Source of the DNA: Xanthomonas campestris pv. campestris str. ATCC 33913
GTDB taxonomy: Bacteria; Pseudomonadota; Gammaproteobacteria; Xanthomonadales; Xanthomonadaceae
Direction of reading: 5' to 3'
Assembly (NCBI RefSeq): GCF_000007145.1
Contig: NC_003902.1
Coordinates: 60,001 to 92,000, forward strand
Length of the DNA: 32,000 nucleotides
The position numbers and the translations under genes are program-made. Below, piece by piece: positions 8,780 to 31,898 of this stretch. Under the pieces are notes generated by a model, which was not told the origin of the DNA, searched no databases, and worked only from the letters and a program-made list of their open reading frames with translations. Within the stretch, counting starts at the first letter, position 1, and every line of letters begins with the position of its first letter.

Positions 8780-11271
8780 GCAAGCACATCCAGCGCCAGG
8801 TCATCGTCCACCTGGGTGGCATGCCGCAACGGCGCGTCCGCATCGAACAACAGCGCCAGCACCGTCAAGGCCAGCGACTTGGGCGACTCGCCCTTGCCTT
8901 CCTCATGCGCGGCCAGCACCGGGCCCACGCAGGCCGGGCAGCCGGCGCTGCAGTCGCAACGCCGCACCAGCTCGTCGGCGCGCTGCAGCAGCTCGGCCTG
9001 GCGCAGCCACAGCGGCTCGCTCAGGCCCACGCCGCCGGGGAAGTTGTCGTACAGATACACCGTGGGCACGAAGGCCTGCTGCAATTCCACCGCGCCTTCT
9101 TCGCCCTCGTCCACGCCGCGCAGCTGCCCGCGCCCGGTCTGGTCGGCCACCGCAAACCACGCGCCGTCGCCATTGCCCACGGCTTTTTGCAGGTCGCGCG
9201 CATCGGCCATCACCGCCACCGTGGCCACCACGTGCAGCGCATAGGCCGCACCCAGGAAACCATCCAGCGCATCCTGCTTGGACGCGAACGCCTTGCCCAG
9301 CGTGGCCTGCGGCAGCTGCCACCACACCGCGGTGGTGTGCAGTTCCTGGTCGGGCAGATTGACCGGCCCGTAGCCGATGTTCTCGTGCGTGTAGTAGCGG
9401 ATCTTCTTGTAGCCGGACACGCGCCGCACCACATGCACCTCGCCGTGATGCGAGTCGCCGCGCCCGGCCACGCCGCCGTCGAAGCGGTCCAGCACCTTCA
9501 GCTTGGTGTAGTCGATGCTGTCGGTGTAGTAGTCCACATGCGTGCGCGTGACATAGGCCTTGCGGCCTTCCCAGTCCAGCCGCTCCACCTGGTACGGCGT
9601 GCTCTGCACCATGTGGATGGCGCCTTCGTACAAGGTCAGTGCCGCGGCCGAATAATCCACCTCGGCGATGATCTGCTGCTTGCCGTCGCTCTTGTCCACC
9701 ACCACGAAGTTGCCGTCGGCCACCGAGCGCAGGCTCACCGCATTGGCCGGGTAGCTGTCGGCGATCCACTCCCAGCGGTCGCCTTCCTGGTGGATCACTT
9801 CGCTCTCGGCCAAGGCTTCCAGGAACACCAGCGGGTCGATCGGCCCGAACGGCTCGCTGGCAATGAACGGCAGCTCGAACGCCGCGCAGCGGATGTGGTC
9901 GAACAAAATCAGCGGCTGATCCGGCGCAATGCGTGCATGTTCGGGCGAGGCATCGGCGAAAAAATCCGGGTGCCGCACCACGTACTGGTCCAGCGGCTGC
10001 GAGCTGGCCACCAGCACACCCAGTGCCGGTTGTTGGCGCCGCCCGGCGCGGCCAAACCGCTGCCAGGTGGCCGCCACGCTGCCGGGGTAGCCATTGAGGA
10101 TCACCACGTCCAGCGCGCCGATATCCACGCCCAGTTCCAGCGCAGACGTGGACACGATGCCGTCGATGGTGCCCGCGCGCATCGCACGCTCCACTTCGCG
10201 GCGCTCGGTGGGCAGATAGCCACCGCGGTATGCCCGGATGCGCGCGGGCTTGCGCGGGTCGTGGTCGAAGATGTCCTTGAGATACTTGGTCAGCACTTCC
10301 ACCATCAGCCGCGTCTGCGCGAACACCAGCGTCTTCAGCCCGCTCTTGATCGCGATGCGCGCGATACGGTTGCTCTGCGAGCGTGCCGATGCGCGCAGGC
10401 CCAGGTCGGCATTGACCACCGGCGGGTTCCACAGCAGCACGTGCTTGTCACCGGTAGGCGCGCCGGATTCGGTGATGGCATGCACGCGTTCTTCGATCAA
10501 GGCCTGCGCGTGCGCATGCGGGTTGCCGATGGTGGCCGAGCACAGGATGAACTGCGGGTTGGCGCCATAGAACGCGCAGATGCGCTTGAGCCGGCGCAGC
10601 ACGTTGGTGACGTGGCTGCCGAACACACCGCGGTAGGTGTGGATCTCATCGATCACCACATAGCGCAGGTTCTCGAAGAACTGCGCCCACTTGGTGTGAT
10701 GCGGCAGGATCGCCTGGTGCAGCATGTCCGGGTTGCTCACCACGATGTCGCCATGCAGGCGGATCGCCTGGCGCGCATCGCCGGGCGTATCGCCATCGAA
10801 GGTGAAGGCTTTCACGCCCAGCTCGCCGGCGCGGTTGAGCTCCAGCAACTCGGCCACCTGGTCCTGCGCCAGCGCCTTGGTCGGGAACAGGTACAGCGCC
10901 TTGGCGCCGGCGGTCATCGCCGCGCTTACCACCGGCAGCGTGTAGCACAGCGACTTGCCTGAGGCGGTGGGCGTCACAATCGCCACATGCTCGCCGCGCT
11001 GGCTCGCCGCCCAGGCATCGGCCTGGTGGCTGTAGAGCTGGCTGATGCCGCGCGCGCGCAGCGCATCGGCCAGGGCCGCCGGCACGTCGTCGGGAATGGG
11101 CGCGTAATGGCCTTCGCGCCCGGGGATGGTGAAGCTGCCGGTGATGCGGTCGTGGTAGCGCCGCTCCAGGCGCTCGGTGAGCAATGCGCCGTCGCGGCTG
11201 GGCCGGCCATCAGTGGTGGCCAGGGCGCGTTCGGCGGTTTCGGTGCGGGGAGCGAGGGCAAACGGAGGCAT
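8776..11271 (-). CDS. DEAD/DEAH-box (DExH) helicase with a C-terminal Cys-cluster domain (MrfA/YprA-like, DUF1998-type)
   Basis: Motif I VTPTASGKSLCY, motif II VIDEIHTY, helicase C motifs (ALELGVDIG, QRFGRAGRR), and the C-terminal RCDCSAGCPACV cluster. Start set at ATG 11271 (GGGAG 7 nt upstream). The ORF-track start at 11400 runs into the duplicated 52-bp repeat. Confidence 0.9.
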   Translation of the reverse strand: MPPFALAPRTETAERALATTDGRPSRDGALLTERLERRYHDRITGSFTIPGREGHYAPIPDDVPAALADALRARGISQLYSHQADAWAASQRGEHVAIVTPTASGKSLCYTLPVVSAAMTAGAKALYLFPTKALAQDQVAELLELNRAGELGVKAFTFDGDTPGDARQAIRLHGDIVVSNPDMLHQAILPHHTKWAQFFENLRYVVIDEIHTYRGVFGSHVTNVLRRLKRICAFYGANPQFILCSATIGNPHAHAQALIEERVHAITESGAPTGDKHVLLWNPPVVNADLGLRASARSQSNRIARIAIKSGLKTLVFAQTRLMVEVLTKYLKDIFDHDPRKPARIRAYRGGYLPTERREVERAMRAGTIDGIVSTSALELGVDIGALDVVILNGYPGSVAATWQRFGRAGRRQQPALGVLVASSQPLDQYVVRHPDFFADASPEHARIAPDQPLILFDHIRCAAFELPFIASEPFGPIDPLVFLEALAESEVIHQEGDRWEWIADSYPANAVSLRSVADGNFVVVDKSDGKQQIIAEVDYSAAALTLYEGAIHMVQSTPYQVERLDWEGRKAYVTRTHVDYYTDSIDYTKLKVLDRFDGGVAGRGDSHHGEVHVVRRVSGYKKIRYYTHENIGYGPVNLPDQELHTTAVWWQLPQATLGKAFASKQDALDGFLGAAYALHVVATVAVMADARDLQKAVGNGDGAWFAVADQTGRGQLRGVDEGEEGAVELQQAFVPTVYLYDNFPGGVGLSEPLWLRQAELLQRADELVRRCDCSAGCPACVGPVLAAHEEGKGESPKSLALTVLALLFDADAPLRHATQVDDDLALDVLA

Positions 11272-11330
11272 ACGGCGGCTCCCAAAGAGGGGCATGAGAC
11301 AGGGGAGGTGTCTCAGGGTATGAGACCGCG

Positions 11331-11382
11331 GCCAAACCGGCGAGCCTGTGTCACTGAGCGGATTCAGCAAGCGGGTATCCTG
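11331..11382. repeat. 52-bp direct repeat, copy 1 (left flank of the Fic cassette)
   Basis: gccaaaccggcgagcctgtgtcactgagcggattcagcaagcgggtatcctg, identical to 12811..12862. Confidence 0.95.
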
Positions 11383-11493
11383 CGCCGCCGCAGATGTCAT
11401 CGGCAGCGCCGCGTTGGCACCGAATCACGCAGGAACTGGTGGCGTTGCAGCAGCGTTCCGTGGTGTGCAGCGTGCGTGGTTGCCGAACGTGCG

Positions 11494-12642
11494 CTAGGCG
11501 CGCAACAGGTTCACGTAAGCCTGGTAGCTGAAGCTCTGGCCGCGTGCACGTCCGGTGGTTTCCACCAGCACACCGATGTCCTGCAGCGTGGTCACCGCCG
11601 CGCGCGCTGTGGGATAAGAGACCTCCAGCGCCTGCTGCGCGCGATCAACGGTCAGCTTCGGCATGGTCGGCAGGAACTCGAACAGCCGCAGCGCCTGCAG
11701 CGTGCTGCTGCCGGTTCCCAGCACGCGCTTGCGATCGGCCGCGATCAACGCCGCAATCGCCACGATGCTGCGCTGGGCCTGTTCGGCAGAGGCTTCCACG
11801 CCCTCAAGGAAGAAGGCCACCCATGCTTCCCAATCGCCATGCGTTCGAATGGCCGACAGGTGCCGGTAGTAGTCGTTTTGCCTGGCTTTGAGGTAGCCGG
11901 ACAGGTACAGCAACGGTTCGGGCAGCAACTGCCAGTGCTCCAGCAGCGCGGCAATCAACAATCGCCCGATCCGGCCGTTGCCATCCAGAAACGGATGGAT
12001 GGTTTCGAACTGCGCATGCACCAGCGCAATGCGGACCAGAGGCGGCAACGTCGGGCGCGTGTCATGGATGAAGCGCTCCAGATCACCAAACACCTCGGCC
12101 AGGCGCTCGGCCGGCGGCGGCACGAATGCCGCATTCCCGGGCCGGGTGCCGCCGATCCAGTTTTGACTGGTGCGCATGCTGCCTGGCAGTGCGTGCGCGC
12201 CACGGACGCCAGCCAGGAGAATCCTGTGCGCCTCGGCAAGCAGGCGCAGCGAGATGGGCAATCCGGTGGGCGCCTGTAACTGCTCACGGACGAACTTGAA
12301 CGCCTGCAGGTAGTTGGTGACCTCTTCCACATCGTCTGCGTTGGCCACTGTCAGCCCTGCCTCCTCGTCGAAGACGTCGGTCAGGGTGGCCTGGGTTCCC
12401 TCCAGTTGTGAGGTCAGCAGCGCCTCTTGCCGGACCGCGCTGTAGATCAGCCACTCGCTCGAGGCCACCAAGCCGGCCATGCCTGTCAGCCGCGCAAGGG
12501 CGACCTCGGCAAGGCGATTACGCTCCAGATACGCGGCCTGATCCAGCGCAGGGGCAGCCGGCGGCAGCGGCGCTGGAACAAACGCGCGCACGGTCTCGTC
12601 ATGGGTCTTGATGACGGCATAGGAGCCGGTGACACGGGCCAT
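11494..12642 (-). CDS. Fic family protein (class II, N-terminal inhibitory helix, C-terminal wHTH-like domain)
   Basis: Canonical Fic motif HPFLDGNGRIGRLL. An upstream [ST]xxxE[GN] inhibitory motif is present (TSQLEG). AGGAAAGGA lies upstream of the ATG at 12642. Confidence 0.9.
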   Translation of the reverse strand: MARVTGSYAVIKTHDETVRAFVPAPLPPAAPALDQAAYLERNRLAEVALARLTGMAGLVASSEWLIYSAVRQEALLTSQLEGTQATLTDVFDEEAGLTVANADDVEEVTNYLQAFKFVREQLQAPTGLPISLRLLAEAHRILLAGVRGAHALPGSMRTSQNWIGGTRPGNAAFVPPPAERLAEVFGDLERFIHDTRPTLPPLVRIALVHAQFETIHPFLDGNGRIGRLLIAALLEHWQLLPEPLLYLSGYLKARQNDYYRHLSAIRTHGDWEAWVAFFLEGVEASAEQAQRSIVAIAALIAADRKRVLGTGSSTLQALRLFEFLPTMPKLTVDRAQQALEVSYPTARAAVTTLQDIGVLVETTGRARGQSFSYQAYVNLLRA

Positions 12643-12810
12643 TCAAGGATCCTTTCCTAGCAGTGCTGGCTATTAAAGAATGCCTTAATAAGACCGAGCG
12701 TTGTGAAACACCTCGTTGCTAAGCGATGGAGGGTCAGCCGGAGCGTGCTGCAGGTTCGGCCAGGTGCCGCATCGTCGCGGCGATGGCAACTGGGCACACG
12801 TGACATCAGC

Positions 12811-12862
12811 GCCAAACCGGCGAGCCTGTGTCACTGAGCGGATTCAGCAAGCGGGTATCCTG
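12811..12862. repeat. 52-bp direct repeat, copy 2 (right flank of the Fic cassette)
   Basis: Identical to 11331..11382. Sequence diverges immediately on both sides of each copy. Confidence 0.95.
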
Positions 12863-12884
12863 TCGGGCCCCACCGGGCCGCGCC

Positions 12885-13586
12885 ATGCGGCGCCGGCGGG
12901 CTCCCCCACCTCGAAGACCTGCCGTGCCCGTGCCCCCCAGCGCTCTCGCCCCGCACTACAAGACCCCTTCCGCCCGCCGTGCCGACGTTGTGGTGCACGC
13001 CGCCGGGTTGTTCCTGGCCATCGTTGGCGGCGCCTGGATGATCTGGCGCGCGCATGCCAACGGCACGATGGTGCTGGCCACCTGCGTCTACGCGCTGGGG
13101 CTGCTGGTGATGTTTGCCTGCTCGGCGGCCTACAACTTCGCCCCGCCGCAGCGCCAGCCGATGCTGCGCAAGTTCGACCACGCCGGCATCTTCGTGATGA
13201 TCGCCGGCTCCTACACGCCGTTCTTCCTGCTGGCGCTGGATGGCAGCTGGCGCTGGGCCATGATCCTGAGCGTGTGGGGTGTGGCCTCGTTCGGTGTGTT
13301 CGCCAAATTATTCCTGCCCGGCATCGCCAAGGGCTTCTGGGTGGCCATCTACCTGCTGCTGGGCTGGGCCGGCATCGTGGTGATCAAGCAGATCGTCGCC
13401 GGGCTGGACAGCACCGTGCTGTGGCTCATCGCCGCCGGTGGCGCGTTCTACACGGTGGGCGTGGGCTTCTACGTGCGCAAGTCCATGGTCTACAACCGCG
13501 CCATCTGGCACGCCCACGTGCTGGGCGGCGCACTGTCGCACTGGTGCGCCATCTGGCTGTGCCTGCGGCCGATGGGCGAGGTGTAG
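12885..13586 (+). CDS. Hemolysin III / PAQR family membrane protein
   Basis: Multi-pass hydrophobic ORF with an N-terminal Y-x-motif followed by HAAG, and histidines at HAGIFVMIAGSYTPF and WHAHVLGG. Start ambiguous: ATG 12885 chosen, and GTG 12828 lies inside the duplicated repeat. Confidence 0.8.
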   Translation: MRRRRAPPPRRPAVPVPPSALAPHYKTPSARRADVVVHAAGLFLAIVGGAWMIWRAHANGTMVLATCVYALGLLVMFACSAAYNFAPPQRQPMLRKFDHAGIFVMIAGSYTPFFLLALDGSWRWAMILSVWGVASFGVFAKLFLPGIAKGFWVAIYLLLGWAGIVVIKQIVAGLDSTVLWLIAAGGAFYTVGVGFYVRKSMVYNRAIWHAHVLGGALSHWCAIWLCLRPMGEV

Positions 13587-16819: not shown

Positions 16820-17333
16820 CTCGGCACGCCGCTGTGGCACGCCGGCCTTAAAACATCAGGCACGTAGCGCGACGCATGTCGCCAGATAACTGGCACAAAT
16901 AGCGCTTCGGTGGTCTTGGAGTATCTGCCGTATCGCGCGCTGCAACCAGCCTTGTGCGGCCAACATGATCGGCCTAGTTTCACCTCGCCACCACGGGGTG
17001 GCGAGGAGGTCACATACATGGCGACCAACGAGGACCACGTTTCGTTTGCCCGAGGCTGTTTGTACGGCAAGCCGCTGGACACCCGAGCCATGCTGGAGAG
17101 TTCTACTATGAATGATTGGCGGCCGTTCGAGTGTTCGTTGAGCGTCCGCTGCCAAGGATATGCCTTAGCAATAACCGGCCTAAGCTATTGCCGATGGCGT
17201 CATCGGTGTGATCCCGCATGAAGATGTCGCCTTGGACTGGCATGGTGCAAACATGGAAATCCAGCAAGTAGGCATCAGTGTCGTGCGTGAGGTATGGCCT
17301 GCTCGAGAGAATGGCTTAAGTGGGTCCGTATGC

Positions 17334-17361
17334 TTTGCTTTGTAGCTTGTTTGGCTATACT
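17334..17361 (+). promoter_or_regulatory. Candidate sigma70-type promoter of the ParA-like/HEPN cassette
   Basis: TTTGCT-N16-TATACT, ending 30 nt upstream of the GTG at 17392. No clear SD, so the leader is probably short. Confidence 0.3.
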
Positions 17362-17391
17362 CAGCAATCATCATCCCGCGTGGTAGCCAAA

Positions 17392-18435
17392 GTGGCCAAA
17401 TTAATTTGCTTATTTAATCATAAGGGTGGGGTGAGTAAGACCACTACGGCATTCAATCTGGGTTGGATGCTCTCATTAAAGGGTAAAAGAGTCATTTTAG
17501 CCGATTTTGATCCCCAATGTAATTTAACTGGAATGGTTGCAGGATTCCGTAAGTTGGATGATCTTGCTGGGCTTTACTCAGCCGCATGGCCAAATAACGT
17601 GCGCGACGCATTGTCCCCTGCATTCGAATCGCAACCTCGCAGAGTGGAAGGCGCGACTTGCTTTACTGTAAATGATCAAGTGCCTAACTTAATGTTGCTG
17701 GCTGGTCACATTGGCCTTGCGGAATATGAGACTACCCTTGGTGTCGCACAAGAATTAAGTGGCTCGCTGTTGCCTCTTCGAAATTTGCCGGGATCTCTTC
17801 GCTTCATGTTGGATGCCACTGCGGAAAAATACAACGCGGATTATGTTCTCATTGATATGAGTCCCAGTGTGGGCGCGCTTAATCAAAATCTTCTGACCAC
17901 TTGTGATTATTTCATTGTTCCATTGCAGCCTGACTACTTTTCTTCTATGGCGCTGAATTCTTTGTCAAATGTATTGCCTAGGTGGCAACGGTGGGCGAAA
18001 ACTGCCGCAGGCATCGAAACTTTGCTGACAGCCGACTATCCGTTTCCTTCTCCTCACGCTAAATTTATCGGTGCAATAGTCCAGAAATATAGGCCGCGGT
18101 TGGGCAAGGCCTCATCTGCTTTCCAGAGTTGGATTGATCGACTGAAGGTTGCGTTGGAAAAAGAACTGGTCCCTGCTTTAGCAAGCGTCGGAATGCTCGA
18201 TATAGCTCAGTACCAAGCGCGGGCAGGCTCGCCGCCTTGGCAGCCTATTATGGAAGTTGCTGACTTCAACAGTCTGATCGCTTTATCACAAGATCATCAA
18301 GTTCCGGTTTATGCTTTGACTGCCGAGCAGGTTGATCAGCAGGGGGCAGTCTGGACGCAAACCCAGAAGAATATGGGTGTTTTTGGCAAAGCGTTCGAGG
18401 AGTGTGCTGAGAAAGTCATCGCTCTTGCAATATGA
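17392..18435 (+). CDS. ParA/Soj/MinD-superfamily ATPase with a long C-terminal extension
   Basis: Deviant Walker A NHKGGVSKTT, A' motif ILADFDPQCN, Walker B YVLIDMSPS. Start set at GTG 17392, giving (M)AKLICLFNHKGG, the usual ParA N-terminus. The ORF-track start at 17320 and a GTG at 17380 are alternatives. At ~347 aa it is ~100 aa longer than typical ParA. Confidence 0.85.
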   Translation: MAKLICLFNHKGGVSKTTTAFNLGWMLSLKGKRVILADFDPQCNLTGMVAGFRKLDDLAGLYSAAWPNNVRDALSPAFESQPRRVEGATCFTVNDQVPNLMLLAGHIGLAEYETTLGVAQELSGSLLPLRNLPGSLRFMLDATAEKYNADYVLIDMSPSVGALNQNLLTTCDYFIVPLQPDYFSSMALNSLSNVLPRWQRWAKTAAGIETLLTADYPFPSPHAKFIGAIVQKYRPRLGKASSAFQSWIDRLKVALEKELVPALASVGMLDIAQYQARAGSPPWQPIMEVADFNSLIALSQDHQVPVYALTAEQVDQQGAVWTQTQKNMGVFGKAFEECAEKVIALAI

Positions 18436-19403
18436 CTCCCCTTCAGCTCTTCAACGAGGTATGGGTTCGCGCAGACCAACTGCGGCTTATGCACTCCTAT
18501 ATTGTAGGCGCAGATCTGGACTCAGTGTATCCAGACGAGGCACTGAGAGCTGAGTGGGTGATGCGCGTCAGTGCCCTCGATCTTTACATACACGAATTGA
18601 TATCAAATCGTTTAGTAAGGATTTTTCAGGGAGGTCTTCATTCGCCTAAAGGATTTAGTAATCTCCGGCTAAAAGCAGAAACTGCGATTCGGTTGGCCAC
18701 AGCGTCTCCTATGGACAGAGATGGGGGATTCGATCTGGATGTAAGAACGCAGCTTGCCTACTCCACATTCCAGATGCCTGATAAAATTGCTGATGGTATT
18801 CGACTTACTAGTGAAATCGAATTATGGGGTTCGTTAGCAAAGTATTTGTATCCGAACGAGCATCCCTCTAACTATAAAAATTTGACTAAGGGCCTTAAGG
18901 ATGATTTGACAGCCATAATCGAACGTCGAAACAAGATTGCTCATGAAGGCGATCTTCAACCAAGTATGCCCAGAGAAGTTTGGTTCATCGATGTAGCGCA
19001 ATTGGAGACCGTTACTTGCTTCTTATATAAACTCGTAAATGCTATAGAGGTAGTGGTCGGGGATTACGATCGCGCGCAAAGCGCAGCGCAATCTCTTGCC
19101 ACATGTGTGGAGGGGCTGCAAGCAGTGCCTACTTCGCCCGCCATTGCTATTCAGATACCTGAAATTCCAGCTACCAATATTGCCATTACTCCCCCCGTGG
19201 CTCAGGAATTTCATGCGGATGGAGTTTTGTGTGCATCCGAAACCTCAGAAGCCAATAGTCTACATATGCCAACACTAAGGCTTGCCGCGGACGATCTGAA
19301 TTTACATTCAAACTTTCGAGGGGGAGAGATCCCAACTACAGAAGTTCATTCCTCTAGCGATCCAATTGCAATACCTGAGGGACGATCCGAAACATCTGAC
19401 TAG
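18432..19403 (+). CDS. HEPN-superfamily (Rx4H) protein with a disordered C-terminal tail
   Basis: The ATG overlaps the ParA-like stop (ATGA at 18432-18435). Predicted helical N-terminal ~210 aa carries TAIIERRNKIAHEGD (R-x4-H). The last ~110 aa are Pro/Ser/Thr/Ala/Ile-rich. Confidence 0.65.
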   Translation: MTPLQLFNEVWVRADQLRLMHSYIVGADLDSVYPDEALRAEWVMRVSALDLYIHELISNRLVRIFQGGLHSPKGFSNLRLKAETAIRLATASPMDRDGGFDLDVRTQLAYSTFQMPDKIADGIRLTSEIELWGSLAKYLYPNEHPSNYKNLTKGLKDDLTAIIERRNKIAHEGDLQPSMPREVWFIDVAQLETVTCFLYKLVNAIEVVVGDYDRAQSAAQSLATCVEGLQAVPTSPAIAIQIPEIPATNIAITPPVAQEFHADGVLCASETSEANSLHMPTLRLAADDLNLHSNFRGGEIPTTEVHSSSDPIAIPEGRSETSD

Positions 19404-19424: not shown

Positions 19425-19785
19425 GAAGCTAATGGGGTCAGGTTTAATTATCTGGCTCCATCGTCCTCATGGATGCAGCGACGATGTCTAGGCGGCCCAA
19501 CCTCTCCAAGCCGACACCGCTGCCACCCACCCGCAGCAGCAGACACCTGCTCCCATCCATTGCGCAGCCCCTTCATCGCTTGCTCGCCCACACGGGCGTA
19601 ACCCAGCTGTTTGGCTTCAGCGGTGCCCAGGCCAGGTAGCGCGACGATGGAATCTGACGGCGCGGGGCGCCCTTGGCGCTTTGCTTCGCTGCGCAGGGTC
19701 ATGTTCTCGCTGCCCTAGCAGTAACGCACCAATCCCGGATGTTGGTGCGCGCGCTACTGCTCCTAGCTGAAGGGCGTGGTTTCCC
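19425..19785. repeat. ~360-bp direct repeat, copy 1 (3' part and 3' flank of the small periplasmic-protein gene)
   Basis: Aligns by eye with 20691..21050 at high identity (starts GAAGCTAATGGGGTCAGG; long shared runs such as GACACCGCTGCCACCCACCCGCAGCAGCAGACACCTGCTCCCA). Ends are approximate. Confidence 0.8.
19448..19785 (-). pseudogene. Degraded paralogue of the 20768..21214 gene
   Basis: Translation parallels the intact copy (MTLRSEAKRQGRPAPSDSIVALPGLGTAEAKQLGYA...). There are three in-frame TAG codons where the intact copy has Cys, Tyr and Gln (TPFS*EQ*RAHQHPGLVRYC*G). The 5' part including the signal peptide is missing, and the normal stop is lost. Confidence 0.65.
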
Positions 19786-19829
19786 GAAGCACTGAGTTTG
19801 CTGAGCCGCCCGCTGCCGAGATGTAACCC

Positions 19830-20669
19830 TCAGAGCGAGCGGGCCTGCCCCAATTGCTGCTGCACAACATCCTGTTGCTGGCTTCTCTGTATTTCCTCAG
19901 CTTTCGCCTGCTGCAGTGCCTCCACCTGCGTTAGACGTTGCTCCGCCGGAACAGACAGGGCTTCCTGCGTCGGCATGTGCGCCCTATTCGCAGCTGGATC
20001 AGGGGAAGCATTGCTCGCGCGCCACATATGCAACACTTCGCCGCTGCCCAGATTTGGAGTAGGTGTGTTGAATGCAAACTTCAAGTCGTCTTTCGCAGTG
20101 AAGCCTTTCTCAGCTGCCATCAGCATCAAGCTGGCACTGAGCCGCTCACTATTGTCATCCCAGGGCTTTCGGGCCTGGCGGTCTAGCTCACTGACGCCTT
20201 GGCGTACTTTTTCAAGCAAGGCACTGTCGATGGACGGATGTTGACTGCGGCCGCTTCTTTCATCGTTTGGAGCAGCAAGATCAAGCGCCGGGCTGACATG
20301 TTGGTGCGTACCCTGCGTATGCTGGAATAGCCCACGTGTGGGTGGGTTCGTGCTCGTATCCCAGTATGGCTGAGGGTTAGCCGCGCCGGTTTGGGAAAGA
20401 TCAATCCCGTTATGTTCCAGCAACGGTTCCTTGAAGCGGAGGCGCTGCATATCAAGATGCATCTGGGGTGCAATGCCGCCCACCGGATGAGCGTGCGTCC
20501 TCTCGATATAGATGGCCCGACTGACTGCCCCTGCACCATAGTAGTTTGGGTAATCCGAGTCGCCATGAAATCCGATGCCGGTGGTCTGAGCTGTGGGTAG
20601 GCCTGGAGTTCCTCGCGGTTGTTTGTTGAAATAGTAAGCCTCTTGGGCGGCAACATTCTGCGGCGTCAT
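19830..20669 (-). CDS. XVIPCD-like protein lacking a recognisable toxin domain (N-terminally truncated X-Tfe paralogue)
   Basis: Shares with 21392..22840 the middle module (G..SDSDY.NYYG.G, LE.NG.DL) and a C-terminal domain (SERLSASLMLMAAEKGF... then a Gln-rich tail QQAKAEEIQRSQQQDVVQQQ). A TGA lies 14 codons upstream of the ATG, so no longer N-terminus is available. Confidence 0.6.
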   Translation of the reverse strand: MTPQNVAAQEAYYFNKQPRGTPGLPTAQTTGIGFHGDSDYPNYYGAGAVSRAIYIERTHAHPVGGIAPQMHLDMQRLRFKEPLLEHNGIDLSQTGAANPQPYWDTSTNPPTRGLFQHTQGTHQHVSPALDLAAPNDERSGRSQHPSIDSALLEKVRQGVSELDRQARKPWDDNSERLSASLMLMAAEKGFTAKDDLKFAFNTPTPNLGSGEVLHMWRASNASPDPAANRAHMPTQEALSVPAEQRLTQVEALQQAKAEEIQRSQQQDVVQQQLGQARSL

Positions 20670-20690: not shown

Positions 20691-21050
20691 GAAGCTAATG
20701 GGGTCAGGCTGACTTATCTGGCTTCAATCTTCCCGTGGATGAGGCGACGATGTCTAGGCCATCTGACCTATCTATCTTGACACCGCTGCCACCCACCCGC
20801 AGCAGCAGACACCTGCTCCCACCCATTGTGCAGCCGCTTCATCGCTTGCCCGCCCACACACGCGTAACCCAGTTGTTTGGCTTCGGCGGTGCCTAGGCCA
20901 GGTAGCGCGATGATGGAATCTGACGGCGCGGGGCGCCCTTGGCGTTGTGCTTCGTTGCGCAGGGTCATGTTTTCGATGCCCTGGCAGTAACGCACCATGC
21001 CCGGATGCGGGTGCGTGCGGTATTGCTCGCAATTGAACGGCGTGGTGTCA
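20691..21050. repeat. ~360-bp direct repeat, copy 2
   Basis: See 19425..19785. The offset between the two copies is 1266 bp. Confidence 0.8.
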
Positions 21051-21214
21051 CGCGCCATGGAGTTGTGCGGCTGCCGCACCGGCGGGATGTACAAGTGCGT
21101 GGCCTTACCCGTGGCCGAGCGCATGCTTTGTGCTGCTGCGCCGTATGCGCACGCAAGCAGGCACAGCGCGGCCAATGTCAGCGCGCCGCGGCGCGCTGTG
21201 GTGATCCTGTCCAT
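20768..21214 (-). CDS. Small Cys-containing exported protein (signal peptide, possibly a lipoprotein)
   Basis: 148 aa. Signal MDRITTARRGALTLAALCLLACAYGAAAQS. Lies immediately downstream of the effector-like gene, and a degraded paralogue sits downstream of the truncated effector paralogue. Confidence 0.6.
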   Translation of the reverse strand: MDRITTARRGALTLAALCLLACAYGAAAQSMRSATGKATHLYIPPVRQPHNSMARDTTPFNCEQYRTHPHPGMVRYCQGIENMTLRNEAQRQGRPAPSDSIIALPGLGTAEAKQLGYACVGGQAMKRLHNGWEQVSAAAGGWQRCQDR

Positions 21215-21391: not shown

Positions 21392-22840
21392 CTAAAGCGA
21401 GTGCAGCTGTCCACGCTGCTGCTGTTCCTGCGACCGCTGCTGATCCAACACCTGCTCTTGCACGCGTTCCTGCGCCAGCCGTTGGTTCACCGTCTCAAGC
21501 TGCGTAAAGCTTTCCTGCACGGGTCGTTGTGCAGCCTCCGCTGTCGGCATGTGTGTGCGTAGCTTTGCGGGATCTTGCGGGCCACCCTGCACCACGAATA
21601 CGTTCTGTGCGGCGGTCAGTTCTCTTGTCTTGTCACTGAGCAGCACATGGTCCACACGGGTCAAGCCATTGTCCTTGGCCAACGTCAGGAGACTTGCGGT
21701 CATACGCTCACTGGTCGCATCGAACGTGCGGCCGCTGGCCGCATCCAGCTGCTCCACCTTGCCGCGAATCTGCTGATGCATTGCGTGGTCCGGGTGGCCT
21801 GCATCTGCAGGCGTTAATAGCTGGCTTGATGGGGCAGGTGTTGCCATGGCTTGCGGGTTGATGTCACGCGCGCCCGTGTTCTTCAGCTGGACCATCCCGT
21901 AGCCGTCTTTGCCGAGGTCTACGATGTTGAACGTTTTTGCAGAACCCAGGTCCAGCCCATTGCGCTCCAGTTGCTCTGGCTCCAGCCCCAACGACTTGAG
22001 GTCGATGCGCACCTCCGGAGGCTGGCGATCATGGGCTAGATGATCGTAGTTTCTCGCAATATGGCTGATCGGGCCGACGCCGTAATAGTTGCGGTAGTCG
22101 GAGTCACTGTGCGGCCCAAGCGTGCCTCTGCTGTCGTAGAAGCACTGCTCTACAGCACGCGTCAGCGGCTTTCCACGCGCTTGGTCGTGTGTGGTCAGCG
22201 CCTCATAGCTAAGGCCCCGGGCAAACGCTGGGGGTGTCACATGCTTGTCAACGCAGCGGGTGACAGAGCGGTCCAACAGCATGCCTTCGGCATCCTCTGC
22301 AGATACGCCAGGGTTTTCATGCTTGATACGGCTGTTGAGTGCACGCAAGGCCGAGATCTCTGCTAATGCTTCGTCCTGCCGTGTCTTGTCCAGATATGCA
22401 CGGGTCGGCTCTGTCAGATCTACCTGACTTTCGCGCTGAGAGTGCGCGTCCTGCATCTTCTCGCCCATGGTCCTGCCGAACTCCGCCAACGCATTGGCTC
22501 GATGTTCTGCCAAAACACCATGCATCGTCTCGTGGCCCAGTACTTCTGTCAGGTGATCGATGCGTGCGCGGCCCTGCCAATCCTGAAAGAGCGACCCACT
22601 GATGTTGAGCGTGCCTGCCTTTCCATCCTTGCCATCCTGAAAGTGACCAGCATTGTTTTGGTCATGGGAGACAGCGATAGCACCAATCTGCCCTTTCTCG
22701 ATGGCGTTCCCCAATAGGTTGGACAGATATGGCGATTCGGAGATGGCCTGCCGGATGGAAGCTTCAGCCTCCTTGGGAAGGCTGGGGTCTTTCCTCATCT
22801 GCAAGAGCAGGGGCTCAATTCTTGGATCAACTGGCGTCAC
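21392..22840 (-). CDS. Candidate Xanthomonadales T4SS effector (X-Tfe-like): N-terminal HExxH metallopeptidase-like domain plus C-terminal XVIPCD-like domain
   Basis: HExxH in HLTEVLGHETMHGV. The C-terminal ~120 aa (SERMTASLLTLAKDNGLTRVDHVLLSDKTRELTAAQNVFVVQGGPQDP...MPTAEAAQRPVQES) is followed by a Gln-rich tail (QEQVLDQQRSQEQQQRGQ). This matches my recollection of the VirD4-interacting XVIPCD signal. The GTG overlaps the upstream lipoprotein stop (GTGA). Confidence 0.7.
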   Translation of the reverse strand: MTPVDPRIEPLLLQMRKDPSLPKEAEASIRQAISESPYLSNLLGNAIEKGQIGAIAVSHDQNNAGHFQDGKDGKAGTLNISGSLFQDWQGRARIDHLTEVLGHETMHGVLAEHRANALAEFGRTMGEKMQDAHSQRESQVDLTEPTRAYLDKTRQDEALAEISALRALNSRIKHENPGVSAEDAEGMLLDRSVTRCVDKHVTPPAFARGLSYEALTTHDQARGKPLTRAVEQCFYDSRGTLGPHSDSDYRNYYGVGPISHIARNYDHLAHDRQPPEVRIDLKSLGLEPEQLERNGLDLGSAKTFNIVDLGKDGYGMVQLKNTGARDINPQAMATPAPSSQLLTPADAGHPDHAMHQQIRGKVEQLDAASGRTFDATSERMTASLLTLAKDNGLTRVDHVLLSDKTRELTAAQNVFVVQGGPQDPAKLRTHMPTAEAAQRPVQESFTQLETVNQRLAQERVQEQVLDQQRSQEQQQRGQLHSL

Positions 22841-23502
22841 GCATCACCTCCATCGATCTGTGCGCCATACACGCACTCGCGTTTTGCGCCGCCGTCGTTG
22901 GTTTCGTAAATCATCAAGGCCACCGAGAAACCTTGCGCTCCGTTCTGGACAGGGCGCCAATGCTGCCGAAGCATACCGCCCTGGAATGGGCGCTGCCCGC
23001 CACGCGTGTAGCCCATAGCCTCGAGTTTCTTGGAAAATTCAGCTGCGTTCCACACGCATTGTGCATTTAGCGACAGCGCGGGATCTTGCTGATCGGGTAG
23101 GCCAATTAGCAGGTTGATAAAGGAATAGCCCTTCTTCTGCGGGCTGTGCGAGACATACAGCGTATAGCCGTGCGCGAGCGGAAGGCTTTTTAACACGCGC
23201 CGAGACACCGCCAGATCCTTTGGCGGCTCGAATCGGATGCCCAGGATCTCTTCCACCCGCCTGTAACTCATGTCGCTTGGCTGTTTTAGCGACGCCGCAA
23301 ATCTCAACAGATTGGTCTCAATGTCCTGGATGCTGAGGGATGCGTTCTGACTCAGCCCGGCCGGCTCAGAATCTACGGCAGGTAGCGGCGATGTAGTAGC
23401 GGACAGGGCGCTAGCGTTCTCAGACGGCCGGGCGCACGCGCTCGGCAGCATCGAGATGAGCACCAAGAAAAGAAACAGCGTAAATGAGCGAAAGCGTGTC
23501 AT
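22837..23502 (-). CDS. Lipoprotein, candidate cognate immunity protein (X-Tfi-like)
   Basis: Start set at ATG 23502. Signal MTRFRSFTLFLFLVLISMLPSA-C has a good lipobox. Translationally coupled to the effector-like gene downstream. Confidence 0.6.
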   Translation of the reverse strand: MTRFRSFTLFLFLVLISMLPSACARPSENASALSATTSPLPAVDSEPAGLSQNASLSIQDIETNLLRFAASLKQPSDMSYRRVEEILGIRFEPPKDLAVSRRVLKSLPLAHGYTLYVSHSPQKKGYSFINLLIGLPDQQDPALSLNAQCVWNAAEFSKKLEAMGYTRGGQRPFQGGMLRQHWRPVQNGAQGFSVALMIYETNDGGAKRECVYGAQIDGGDA

Positions 23503-23613
23503 TGATGTCGTATGAGCCAGCGCGGCGCGGTGATACGAGGGAAGGTACTCGCCCTCGCTCCAACCGGCCAGTCCGCCGGCCAGGCAGCTCACGCACGAAC
23601 CAGACACACGCCC

Positions 23614-24234: not shown

Positions 24235-24761
24235 TTATCGGACAGGCGCCGCCTGGCTTGGCTCGTTCCTGCTCCGCGACACCTCGTGCTGCTGGGTGAG
24301 CACGCGTTCCTGCGCCAGCGTCTGATTGGCGGCCAGCAGTTGCTGGTCGGACTGTTCGACCGGTGTCTGGATGGCCTGGTCCACGTCCACATGCACACGC
24401 TTGTGGGCAGGGTCATCCAGGCGGCCCTCCACTGCGAACACATTGCCGGTTTTGCCCATCACTCCGTGGTCCACCGGCGTCAGTGCGTCTCTGCCAGCGA
24501 CCGGTCACCGGCGCCCGGATACGCATCGCGGTTGTCCTTGCACACGGCCAACAGACTCCGGCTGATTCGTTCGCTCATGGCGTCGTACGGCTTGCCCGCA
24601 CGAGGTGCGGCCGGGTTCGTTGTTGATGGGCCTTTGCTGCTTGCCGGTAACGCCGTGCAGGCGCCTGTCGAATTCCGCTTGGCCCATTCGTCGTTGTTGC
24701 GAAGGCCGGCATTCCGCCTGCCGCCGTCGTGCTCCTGCCGGGGCGCACAAGGAACCCGCAA
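24235..24761 (-). pseudogene. Frameshifted, 5'-truncated remnant of a third XVIPCD-type effector gene
   Basis: Two frames together recreate an XVIPCD-like sequence. One gives GKPYDAMSERISRSLLAVCKDN (ORF 24480..24761). The other gives (V)DHGVMGKTGNVFAVEGRLDDPAHKRVHVDVDQAIQTPVEQS..QERVLTQQHE (ORF 24235..24474). There is no upstream toxin domain, and the remnant abuts the start of the + strand gene at 24761. Confidence 0.55.
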
Positions 24762-30513: not shown

Positions 30514-30825
30514 CTACAACGTGCCCTGCTTCCACAGCCGTACGATTTCCGCCGGGGCGTGTTCTTCGGGGATGCGCAGCGGTTCGCTGGCGCCATCCCA
30601 GATGATGCTGAAGTAGCGGCGGTCGCCGCCGCCGGCTTGCGGGGCGGGGAGTGCATGCGCCAGGCACTGATCCAGCAGCGCGCCCAGGTGTTGGCGTTGC
30701 ACCTCGTCCAGCTCTTCCAGCAGCAGCTGGCGCTCGCGGCGCATGGCCGGGAACGCGGCCACGCCACCTTCGCGTGCCAACCGCAACACGACACCCGGTT
30801 GCAAGGGCGGCAGTTGCACGGTCAT
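30514..30825 (-). CDS. Emfourin-like protein (candidate inhibitor of the upstream M4 protease)
   Basis: 103-aa ORF whose ATG overlaps the protease stop (ATGA at 30822-30825). Size, position and general sequence character match my recollection of the protealysin-operon inhibitor emfourin. Confidence 0.6.
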   Translation of the reverse strand: MTVQLPPLQPGVVLRLAREGGVAAFPAMRRERQLLLEELDEVQRQHLGALLDQCLAHALPAPQAGGGDRRYFSIIWDGASEPLRIPEEHAPAEIVRLWKQGTL

Positions 30826-31898
30826 GCGAGCACGCCCACGTCGCGCCAGGCCTGTTCCACCGCACTGGCCTCGGCACTGCCCGCGCCGTAATCGGTGCTG
30901 GCCACGCGCACGGTGAGTGCGGCGAAGGTGGCGAAGTCCGCACTGGCCGACAGCGCGCCACCGGTGAGGGCGCGGTACCAGATGCGCCCGGCCTTTTCCC
31001 AGGCGTAACCGCCGATGGCAACCGCGGCGCGCTGGAAGGCGCGGTTGGGAATACCGGAGTTGTAGTGCACGCCGCCGTCGTCTTCTTGCGTGTCCACGTA
31101 GGCGTCCATATGCGCCGGTTGCGGGTCCTTGCCCAATGCCGGGTCATCGTAGGCGGTGCCCGGCGCCTGCATCGAGCGTAGCGCCACGCCCTGCACGCCG
31201 GGCAGGAACATGCCGGCACCCACCAGCCAATCGGCCTGCGCGGCGTCCTGGCGCAGCGCGTATTGCTTGACGAGCACGCCGAACACGTCGGAGACCGATT
31301 CGTTCAAGGCACCGGACTGGCCCTGGTAGATCAGGTTGGCGGTGCGCTCGATGACACCGTGGGTGAGCTCGTGGGCCACCACGTCGATGGCGATGGTGAA
31401 GCGGGTGAAGATCTCGCCGTCGCCATCGCCGAACACCATCTGCTCGCCGGTCCAGAACGCGTTGTCGTAGTTGCGCTCGTAGTGCACGGTACCAAGCAGC
31501 GGCATGCCGGCATCGTCGATCGAGTTGCGCGCATACACCTGCTGGAAGAAGGCATGGGTGGCGCCGAGGTAATCGTAAGCCTCGGTCACGGCGACATCGT
31601 CGGTGGGCGGCGCACCTTCCTCGCGCACCAGCACGCCAGGCAGGGCGGTGCCTTGCCGGGCGTCGTAGAGATGCCGCCGCACCGCGGTGTCAGTGGTGGC
31701 GGTGGGCGCATCGTCGGCGCTGTCGCGCGCCAGCAACCCCTGCGCGCGGCGCTGGCGCAGCTGCGCGGTGATGTGGCGGGTGAGCTGCGCGCAGTGCCGT
31801 GCGCGCTCCGGTGCGGCCTGCGCCACGTGGTCCAGCAGATACGGCGGCAGGATGCCGGCGCGGCGGGGCGCAACAAACGCAGACATAGCGATCTCCAC
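30822..31898 (-). CDS. M4 family (thermolysin-like) metallopeptidase of the protealysin-like subgroup
   Basis: HExxH in VVAHELTHGV, downstream GALNESVSDVFG (third zinc ligand motif). The short N-terminal propeptide has the ILPPYLL (PPL) motif characteristic of protealysin-like proteases. No classical signal peptide. Confidence 0.9.
   Translation of the reverse strand: MEIAMSAFVAPRRAGILPPYLLDHVAQAAPERARHCAQLTRHITAQLRQRRAQGLLARDSADDAPTATTDTAVRRHLYDARQGTALPGVLVREEGAPPTDDVAVTEAYDYLGATHAFFQQVYARNSIDDAGMPLLGTVHYERNYDNAFWTGEQMVFGDGDGEIFTRFTIAIDVVAHELTHGVIERTANLIYQGQSGALNESVSDVFGVLVKQYALRQDAAQADWLVGAGMFLPGVQGVALRSMQAPGTAYDDPALGKDPQPAHMDAYVDTQEDDGGVHYNSGIPNRAFQRAAVAIGGYAWEKAGRIWYRALTGGALSASADFATFAALTVRVASTDYGAGSAEASAVEQAWRDVGVLA

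Follow-up and report, generated by a model that had tools for sequence, protein, structure and literature searches.

A predicted HExxH effector gene and its overlapping upstream lipoprotein gene in Xanthomonas campestris pv. campestris form a probable effector/immunity module

The window analysed here is a stretch of 32,000 nucleotides (nt) from Xanthomonas campestris pv. campestris (Xcc) strain ATCC 33913 (contig NC_003902.1, positions 60,001 to 92,000 of the forward strand). It carries two overlapping genes, both on the minus strand. The first encodes a candidate lipoprotein, and the second encodes a protein of 482 amino acids (aa) with an N-terminal HExxH motif and a C-terminal XVIPCD, referred to below as the effector. 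An initial annotation, made from the sequence without database searches, had read this pair as an effector (X-Tfe) of the Xanthomonadales type IV secretion system (X-T4SS) together with its cognate immunity protein (X-Tfi). The defining feature of X-Tfes is the XVIPCD, through which they bind VirD4 and without which they are not secreted (PMC6536674; PMC8740702). X-Tfi genes are found upstream of the X-Tfe gene, often overlapping it, and many of them encode lipoproteins (PMC7777525). The features of the locus are collected in Table 1. The sequence CP000050.1, from Xcc 8004, shares 99.98% identity with the window over 20.6 kb. Many Xcc chromosomes encode the effector protein in identical form, and it is found in 201 indexed blocks of the sequence collection; the six contigs shown with it are all complete or chromosome-scale Xanthomonas sequences, one of which is CP000050.1.

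Table 1. Features of the effector/lipoprotein locus and adjoining genes, in window coordinates (position 1 is the first nucleotide of the window).
Feature	Position	Strand	Basis
X-Tfe-type effector gene, 482 aa, GTG start; N-terminal HExxH domain, XVIPCD, Gln-rich tail	21392..22840	-	open reading frame (ORF), Pfam, homologue names
N-terminal toxin domain (N-domain), aa 1-325, predicted gluzincin-like zinc hydrolase	21866..22840	-	family profile, AlphaFold2 (AF2) model
HETMH, aa 103-107: predicted zinc ligands H103 and H107, predicted catalytic E104	22520..22534	-	translation, conservation
E157 (within RQDEALAE), the predicted third zinc ligand, carried by a helix following the active-site one	22370..22372	-	conservation, model
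XVIPCD, aa 346-449, predicted VirD4-recognition/secretion domain	21494..21805	-	PF20410, PDB matches
Gln-rich C-terminal tail, aa 450-482	21395..21493	-	composition; helix in AF2 model
Candidate X-Tfi immunity lipoprotein gene, 221 aa from ATG 23502	22837..23502	-	ORF, homologues, gene order
Predicted signal peptide and lipobox, MTRFRSFTLFLFLVLISMLPSAC; Cys23 = nt 23434-23436	23434..23502	-	translation, conservation
Probable translational coupling site: GGAGG, 6-nt spacer, GTG start over TGA stop (GTGA)	22837..22851	-	sequence
Truncated effector paralogue, 279 aa: last third of N-domain and XVIPCD	19830..20669	-	BLASTP, Pfam
Small XAC0095-domain gene 5' of the pair, 85 aa	23614..23871	-	PF26642, precomputed annotation of identical product
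3' end of a long-type HExxH X-Tfe gene, frameshifted, with only the XVIPCD left	24238..24599	-	tblastn, Pfam

The C-terminal part of the effector is the part with characterised relatives, and public annotation already designates the protein as "XVIPCD domain-containing". Residues 346-449 match the profile PF20410 (X-Tfes_XVIPCD) with 111.4 bits against a cut-off of 24.9 (E value 3.5e-32), and the match spans positions 2-100 of the 101 positions of the profile. A phmmer search of PDB sequences returned 9p3h (E value 6e-29) and 7mu9 (E value 1e-5), as well as 7r6s, all through their XVIPCD parts; 7mu9 is the XVIPCD of XAC2609, and 7r6s is TfcB. The same two structures were recovered when the AF2 model of the full-length effector (mean predicted local distance difference test, pLDDT, 85) was compared with the PDB by Foldseek (7r6s, E value 1.6e-6; 7mu9, E value 7e-4), and the significant matches in this search were limited to the XVIPCD. 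The initial annotation had called this domain on the pattern LTRVDHVLLS…FVVQG, which is found in the effector, and the call is now backed by a curated profile hidden Markov model (HMM) and solved structures. The Gln-rich tail is present, Gln making up 34% of the final 32 residues, and the C-terminal domain does recur in two other ORFs of the window, as Pfam identifies an XVIPCD in 19830-20669 and in 24235-24474. Orthology to Smlt3024 was considered on account of the NCBIfam model NF050128 and rejected, the match having 121 bits against a cut-off of 800 and aligning aa 343-476, that is, only the XVIPCD.

The N-terminal ~325 aa have no match above threshold in Pfam or NCBIfam, and a search of PDB sequences with the N-domain profile gave chance matches only. 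Homologues with 44-90% identity over nearly the whole of this domain are proteins of ~480 aa, annotated as "XVIPCD domain-containing protein", in Xanthomonas, Pseudoxanthomonas and Stenotrophomonas. When the N-domain profile was searched against 1.84 billion cluster representatives (clusters at 50% identity), 450 clusters were matched at an E value of 1e-3 or below and 310 at 1e-10 or below. A scan of species-representative genomes found the family in Xanthomonas, Pseudoxanthomonas, Stenotrophomonas, Lysobacter and Variovorax; the contigs were scanned with the motifs S[DN]YRNYYG and QLERNG[LV][DE]L, and the long-type loci lie outside the reach of these motifs. Pfam detects an XVIPCD in 68 of the 97 divergent family representatives scanned. 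The N-domain belongs to a large and coherent family that is mostly fused to XVIPCDs and has no Pfam model.

The architecture of the family varies in several ways. Long-type members of 560-650 aa have an additional N-terminal ~100 aa that resemble the start of the domain. A few members contain the N-domain in duplicate or triplicate and keep HExxH in one copy only (P0138, 1106 aa; P0148, 767 aa), and in a single member, P0120 (778 aa), a PG_binding_1 domain separates the N-domain from the XVIPCD. Deletion variants of 253 aa occur in Xcc and X. hortorum (P0050 and P0051). Separately, a metagenome contig (L009, positions 7154-13022) carries three paralogous genes of the family at a single locus; they encode proteins of 475-476 aa that are 33-35% identical to the effector, a distance like that of the Lysobacter enzymogenes members (33-35%), and their C-termini are too divergent for the Pfam XVIPCD model.

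The effector has one HExxH motif, HETMH, which lies within LGHETMHGV, as initially annotated. Over 123 profile-aligned representatives, H103, E104 and H107 are conserved in 99%, E157 in 100%, and Y249 in 98%. In a MAFFT alignment of the 97 representatives, with a mean column identity of 13%, the only invariant columns are H103, E104, H107 and E157. The AF2 model places a helix at 37-48, three strands within 52-81, the HExxH helix at 90-109 and the helix bearing E157 at 143-175; the distance from H107 to E157 is 50 residues, with a further helix in between. Judged from general knowledge of clan MA, this modelled layout would be that of a gluzincin, and HExxH…E157 reads as a gluzincin-type signature. 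The sub-threshold Pfam matches of the 97 members point the same way, as they land almost solely on zincin (clan MA) peptidase families: M48 in 17 members, DUF6782 in 10, Zn_peptidase_2 in 9, BSP and M13 in 5 each, and M91 and M32 in 3 each. The best of them is a match of one member to M48 (E value 3.5e-4). In the Foldseek search, the structures that follow the XVIPCD matches include snapalysin, selecase and MMP-11, with E values of 2-6, which are not significant alone. The N-domain is likely to work like a zinc metallopeptidase. We place it in no existing peptidase or MEROPS family because it has no significant similarity to a characterised member. The initial proposal of a metallopeptidase-type domain is strengthened by the invariant active-site signature, and the domain remains a predicted peptidase.

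It could be argued that the HExxH domain is a metal-dependent enzyme other than a peptidase, such as an amidase of peptidoglycan or a hydrolase of lipids or glycans, or that it acts by binding. That neither a peptidase family nor a peptidase structure was matched significantly would agree with this, as would the strongly conserved residues Y249, D236 and the Asn at position 166, which belong to no named peptidase motif. Moreover, Sgro et al. support the HExxH label with a review of peptidoglycan amidase folds (PMC6536674). However, an invariant HExxH followed by a downstream Glu is the signature of gluzincin peptidases, and the weak matches are almost all to peptidases (M48, M13, M32, M91, BSP and Zn_peptidase_2). 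A role in binding alone is further opposed by the invariance of the Glu expected to act as general base. We consider a non-peptidase activity unlikely, and a zinc-hydrolase mechanism of the N-domain remains the likely one.

The gene upstream of the effector had been described as encoding a lipoprotein, with the lipobox LPSA-C, and as overlapping the effector start, and this description is accurate. The TGA stop of the lipoprotein gene and the GTG start of the effector gene share the sequence GTGA at 22837-22840. An overlap of 4-8 bp is also found in Pseudoxanthomonas, in Stenotrophomonas and in a Lysobacter-like metagenome contig. The open frame of the lipoprotein reaches back to a GTG at 23607 (22837-23607), and from the ATG at 23502 the N-terminus reads MTRFRSFTLFLFLVLISMLPSAC. 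In the homologues, which are annotated as "hypothetical protein" throughout, Cys23 is invariant, LPSAC-AR is conserved, and there are two more conserved Cys positions. A scan for promoters and terminators gave no promoter-like sites, and terminator-like sites at the level of shuffled sequence, which are uninformative.

The partnership of the two genes was assessed with an HMM of the lipoprotein family, run against every ORF at 39 loci with an effector homologue, an ORF being counted as a partner when it ends at the effector start or a few bases beyond. At ~33 of the 39 a lipoprotein homologue lies immediately 5' of the effector homologue; these loci range from Xanthomonas to Lysobacter and Variovorax, the matches in the last two genera being weak but consistent. 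In eight loci (L007, L011-L013, L015, L016, L026 and L030), which come from several species, a single effector gene has two or three lipoprotein genes in tandem in front of it, an arrangement that resembles the immunity-gene arrays of other toxin systems. By comparison, a secreted 148-aa protein encoded downstream of the effector (20768-21214) occurs at no more than 3 of the 39. From gene content, the upstream lipoprotein is the conserved partner of the effector. The AF2 model of the mature lipoprotein has three helices and a seven-stranded sheet, with a pLDDT of ~90 over the fold. A search of PDB sequences with the lipoprotein profile found no meaningful match. With Foldseek against the PDB, the best match of the model has an E value of 0.04 and a TM-score (template modelling score) below 0.3, none being found at an E value of 0.001 or below, and no X-Tfi structure is among the best 50 matches listed.

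From these results we propose, with good confidence, that the two genes constitute a bicistronic effector/immunity module of the bactericidal X-T4SS of Xcc. The pair is very likely an X-Tfe/X-Tfi module: the initial reading as effector and immunity protein agrees with the published order of X-Tfi and X-Tfe genes (PMC7777525), as the lipobox gene lies upstream and overlaps, and the lipoprotein family tracks the effector family across genera. In the proposed mechanism, the XVIPCD would pass the effector to VirD4, and cell contact would then lead to injection of the effector into a Gram-negative rival, in whose periplasm it would act. The N-domain would be a zinc hydrolase resembling the gluzincins, and most likely a peptidase, in which the zinc would be held by H103, H107 and E157, with E104 as the general base. 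The lipoprotein would be anchored in the periplasm of the producer, where it would bind and block effector that arrives from sister cells or by leakage.

The site of action and the substrate can be considered a little further. Over the family, Cys residues corresponding to C196 and C233 are both present in 47 members, both absent from 74, and present singly in 2. This co-occurrence suggests that the two form a disulfide, which would imply an oxidising compartment. The Cys pair, together with the signal peptide and invariant Cys of the partner, would favour periplasmic action. With regard to the substrate, our best guess is the peptide part of peptidoglycan, because of the PG_binding_1 fusion in P0120 and the view taken of XAC0096 in the literature; a specific envelope protein is the runner-up. 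A bolder proposal can be built on the runner-up, namely that the N-domain and the lipoprotein represent a novel toxin/immunity superfamily, largely confined to X-T4SSs, which comprises at least 450 clusters at 50% identity and lacks a Pfam model or a related solved structure. In this superfamily a gluzincin-like enzyme would cut a specific, essential Gram-negative envelope protein rather than bulk peptidoglycan, and the inhibitor would have a fold new to the PDB. We offer this only tentatively, and the odds are against its holding in full.

The genes on either side of the pair bear on the history of the locus. The remnant at 24238-24599 spans two ORFs, 24235-24474, which encodes a 79-aa fragment with a Pfam XVIPCD (E value 1.3e-11), and 24480-24761. 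By tblastn it aligns with aa 512-632, the last 121, of the long-type protein P0340 from X. phaseoli at 75-86% identity, with a change of frame at 24489. In X. phaseoli the surroundings of the P0340 gene are syntenic with this part of the window, with the genes for an M4 peptidase, emfourin, AHSA1, HDOD and CsbD proteins. Xcc thus seems to have lost most of a long-type gene at the site of the remnant. On the other side, the truncated 279-aa paralogue has 30% identity to aa 213-458 of the effector by BLASTP (E value 4e-24) and an XVIPCD with an E value of 2.8e-14. It begins near the motif DSDY(R/P)NYYG, lacks both HExxH and E157, and is probably inactive. It is flanked by 363-bp direct repeats (19425-19786 and 20691-21052, 86% identity) that duplicate the 3' half of the gene for the 148-aa protein, the ORFs concerned being 20768-21214 and 19448-19702, both on the minus strand.

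Other genes of the window are recorded here as observations in their own right. The 85-aa product of the small XAC0095-domain gene had no match in the Pfam scan run here, the PF26642 assignment being that given in Table 1. Genes of the XAC0095 type also lie near the module in five loci (L007, L012, L013, L016 and L026) from X. hortorum, X. dyei and Pseudoxanthomonas, and for XAC0095 of X. citri an interaction with HrpG and expression in planta have been reported. A low-GC island at 17320-19403 on the plus strand (48-49% versus ~65%) encodes a ParA-like AAA_31 ATPase whose gene overlaps that of a HEPN (RiboL-PSP-like) protein; the two genes resemble a defence or toxin-type module gained by horizontal transfer, and the island varies among Xcc strains. 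A Fic-domain protein gene (Fic_N and Fic; 11494-12642, minus strand) lies at the edge of the variable region. At ~30514-31898, on the minus strand, an M4 (thermolysin-family) peptidase gene is followed by a gene for an emfourin inhibitor, a second peptidase/inhibitor pair that is unrelated to the effector pair.

The decay of neighbouring genes raises the alternative that the pair is a genomic relic, in which both genes are intact, a fragmented or inactive X-T4SS no longer delivers the effector, and the genes are kept by an addiction-like linkage of toxin and antidote. No vir genes lie within the window, and the presence of an X-T4SS in Xcc is taken from the literature (PMC6536674). Sgro et al. 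(2019) list Xcc 8004 among the genomes with an X-T4SS, in which the locus is fragmented and virB5 and virB6 lie elsewhere; the virB locus is fragmented in both Xcc 8004 and ATCC 33913, and its deletion had no virulence phenotype (PMC6536674). The frameshifted XVIPCD remnant and the truncated paralogue without HExxH in the same island, as well as the 253-aa deletion variants of Xcc and X. hortorum, would also fit a relic. Nevertheless, the effector ORF is full length with its four catalytic residues intact, the signals for coupling are intact too, and the same protein is conserved without change in the 201 blocks described above, the six contigs shown being complete or chromosome-scale. Furthermore, the fragmentation of the locus relocates virB5 and virB6 and does not remove them (PMC6536674). 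We regard the relic explanation as improbable.

Several points nonetheless weigh against a functional module of the kind proposed. The X-T4SS locus of Xcc 8004 is in pieces (PMC6536674), we found no report in the literature of T4SS-dependent killing by Xcc, and the XVIPCD genes adjoining the pair appear decayed. The N-domain has no significant similarity to characterised peptidases, whether in Pfam, in PDB sequences or by Foldseek (E values of 2-6), and the hint towards peptidoglycan has one fusion protein, P0120, behind it. In the lipoprotein, the Pro at -3 of the lipobox (L-P-S-A-C) is atypical, although the Cys is invariant, and an A-x-A site for signal peptidase I (ACA|R) is a possible alternative.

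A eukaryotic target, plant or fungus, in place of a bacterial one would be in keeping with LtdD, an X-T4SS effector of Lysobacter that acts on fungi (PMC13600162), and with the adjoining XAC0095-type gene, given the link of that type to HrpG and in-planta expression in X. citri. Yet a dedicated periplasmic lipoprotein implies a target in the producer's own periplasm, deletion of the T4SS of Xcc 8004 left virulence unchanged (PMC6536674), and LtdD is a nuclease unrelated to the N-domain (PMC13600162); such a target is very improbable. Finally, the Cys-rich 148-aa protein, which has a signal peptide with an LLAC lipobox, has a homologue 3' of a long-type effector gene in X. phaseoli as well, and recalls the pairing of XAC0096 with the next gene number, XAC0097, in the literature (PMC8740702), was rejected as the immunity protein on its distribution (the 3 loci are all from X. 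hortorum), its gene being separated from the effector stop by 177 nt without coupling and its sequence showing no similarity to the upstream lipoprotein, so that we give next to no credence to its being the cognate immunity protein, alone or jointly with the lipoprotein.

The effector/immunity module proposed here can be compared with several known systems, the first being enzymes that share its active-site signature. With the gluzincins and minigluzincins (clan MA; M48, selecase), the N-domain would share the placement of HExxH on a helix preceded by a small beta-sheet, with the invariant Glu further along on another helix, along with sub-threshold matches to M48, M13, M32, BSP and Zn_peptidase_2 and a weak Foldseek match to selecase. 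It differs from them in that no match is significant, in the 50-residue spacing of His and Glu with its extra helix, and in the C-terminal half of the N-domain, which includes the Y249 motif DSDYRNYYG and has no identifiable counterpart. The second comparison is functional, with metallopeptidase toxins that other contact-dependent systems send to the periplasm. The C-terminal domain of VgrG2b of Pseudomonas aeruginosa is an HExxH toxin that is delivered to the periplasm of a rival and neutralised by a periplasmic immunity protein. Unlike the effector, VgrG2b is delivered by a type VI secretion system, and no sequence or fold match between the two was seen.

The closest comparison is with other X-Tfes. 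XAC0096 of X. citri interacts with VirD4 and carries the label "putative HExxH metallopeptidase" in the literature, which groups it with those X-Tfes of X. citri for which cleavage of peptidoglycan is considered possible (PMC6759196; PMC8740702). From its published description and its length, we infer that XAC0096 is a member of the long-type group; a search seeded with a 646-aa member, together with cluster listings, returned many long-type proteins of Xanthomonas, none of which was named XAC0096 or X. citri 306. The long-type protein P0340 of X. phaseoli (632 aa) resembles the effector in having both an HExxH…E domain and an XVIPCD; the two proteins are 30% identical over 433 residues (E value 5e-36), and P0340 is likewise preceded by a lipobox protein that matches the lipoprotein HMM (E value 2e-7). 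The long-type proteins differ from the effector in their extra N-terminal ~100 aa. HExxH X-Tfes are recognised in the literature; we found no experimental work on any of them, and none is known to have been characterised. What is added here is the coherence of the family, with its four invariant catalytic-type residues, its dedicated lipoprotein family, and a PG-binding fusion as a hint to the substrate. H103, E104, H107 and E157 are clear targets for point mutation, and the activity and target of the family are directly testable; new antibacterial activities are to be found among X-T4SS effectors.

With established X-Tfe/X-Tfi pairs, such as XAC2609/XAC2610 of X. citri and Smlt3024/Smlt3025 of Stenotrophomonas maltophilia, the effector shares the XVIPCD and the Gln-rich tail, and the lipoprotein gene shares with the X-Tfi genes of such pairs its upstream, overlapping position and the signal peptide with lipobox. 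The annotated start of the lipoprotein is probably too far upstream, as has been shown for Smlt3025 (PMC6759196). Where the pair departs from XAC2609 and Smlt3024 is in the N-domain of the effector, which is related neither to GH19 nor to Smlt3024. The current picture of X-T4SS biology is left unchanged, and the pair from Xcc would take its place as an uncharacterised addition to the known X-Tfe/X-Tfi kind.

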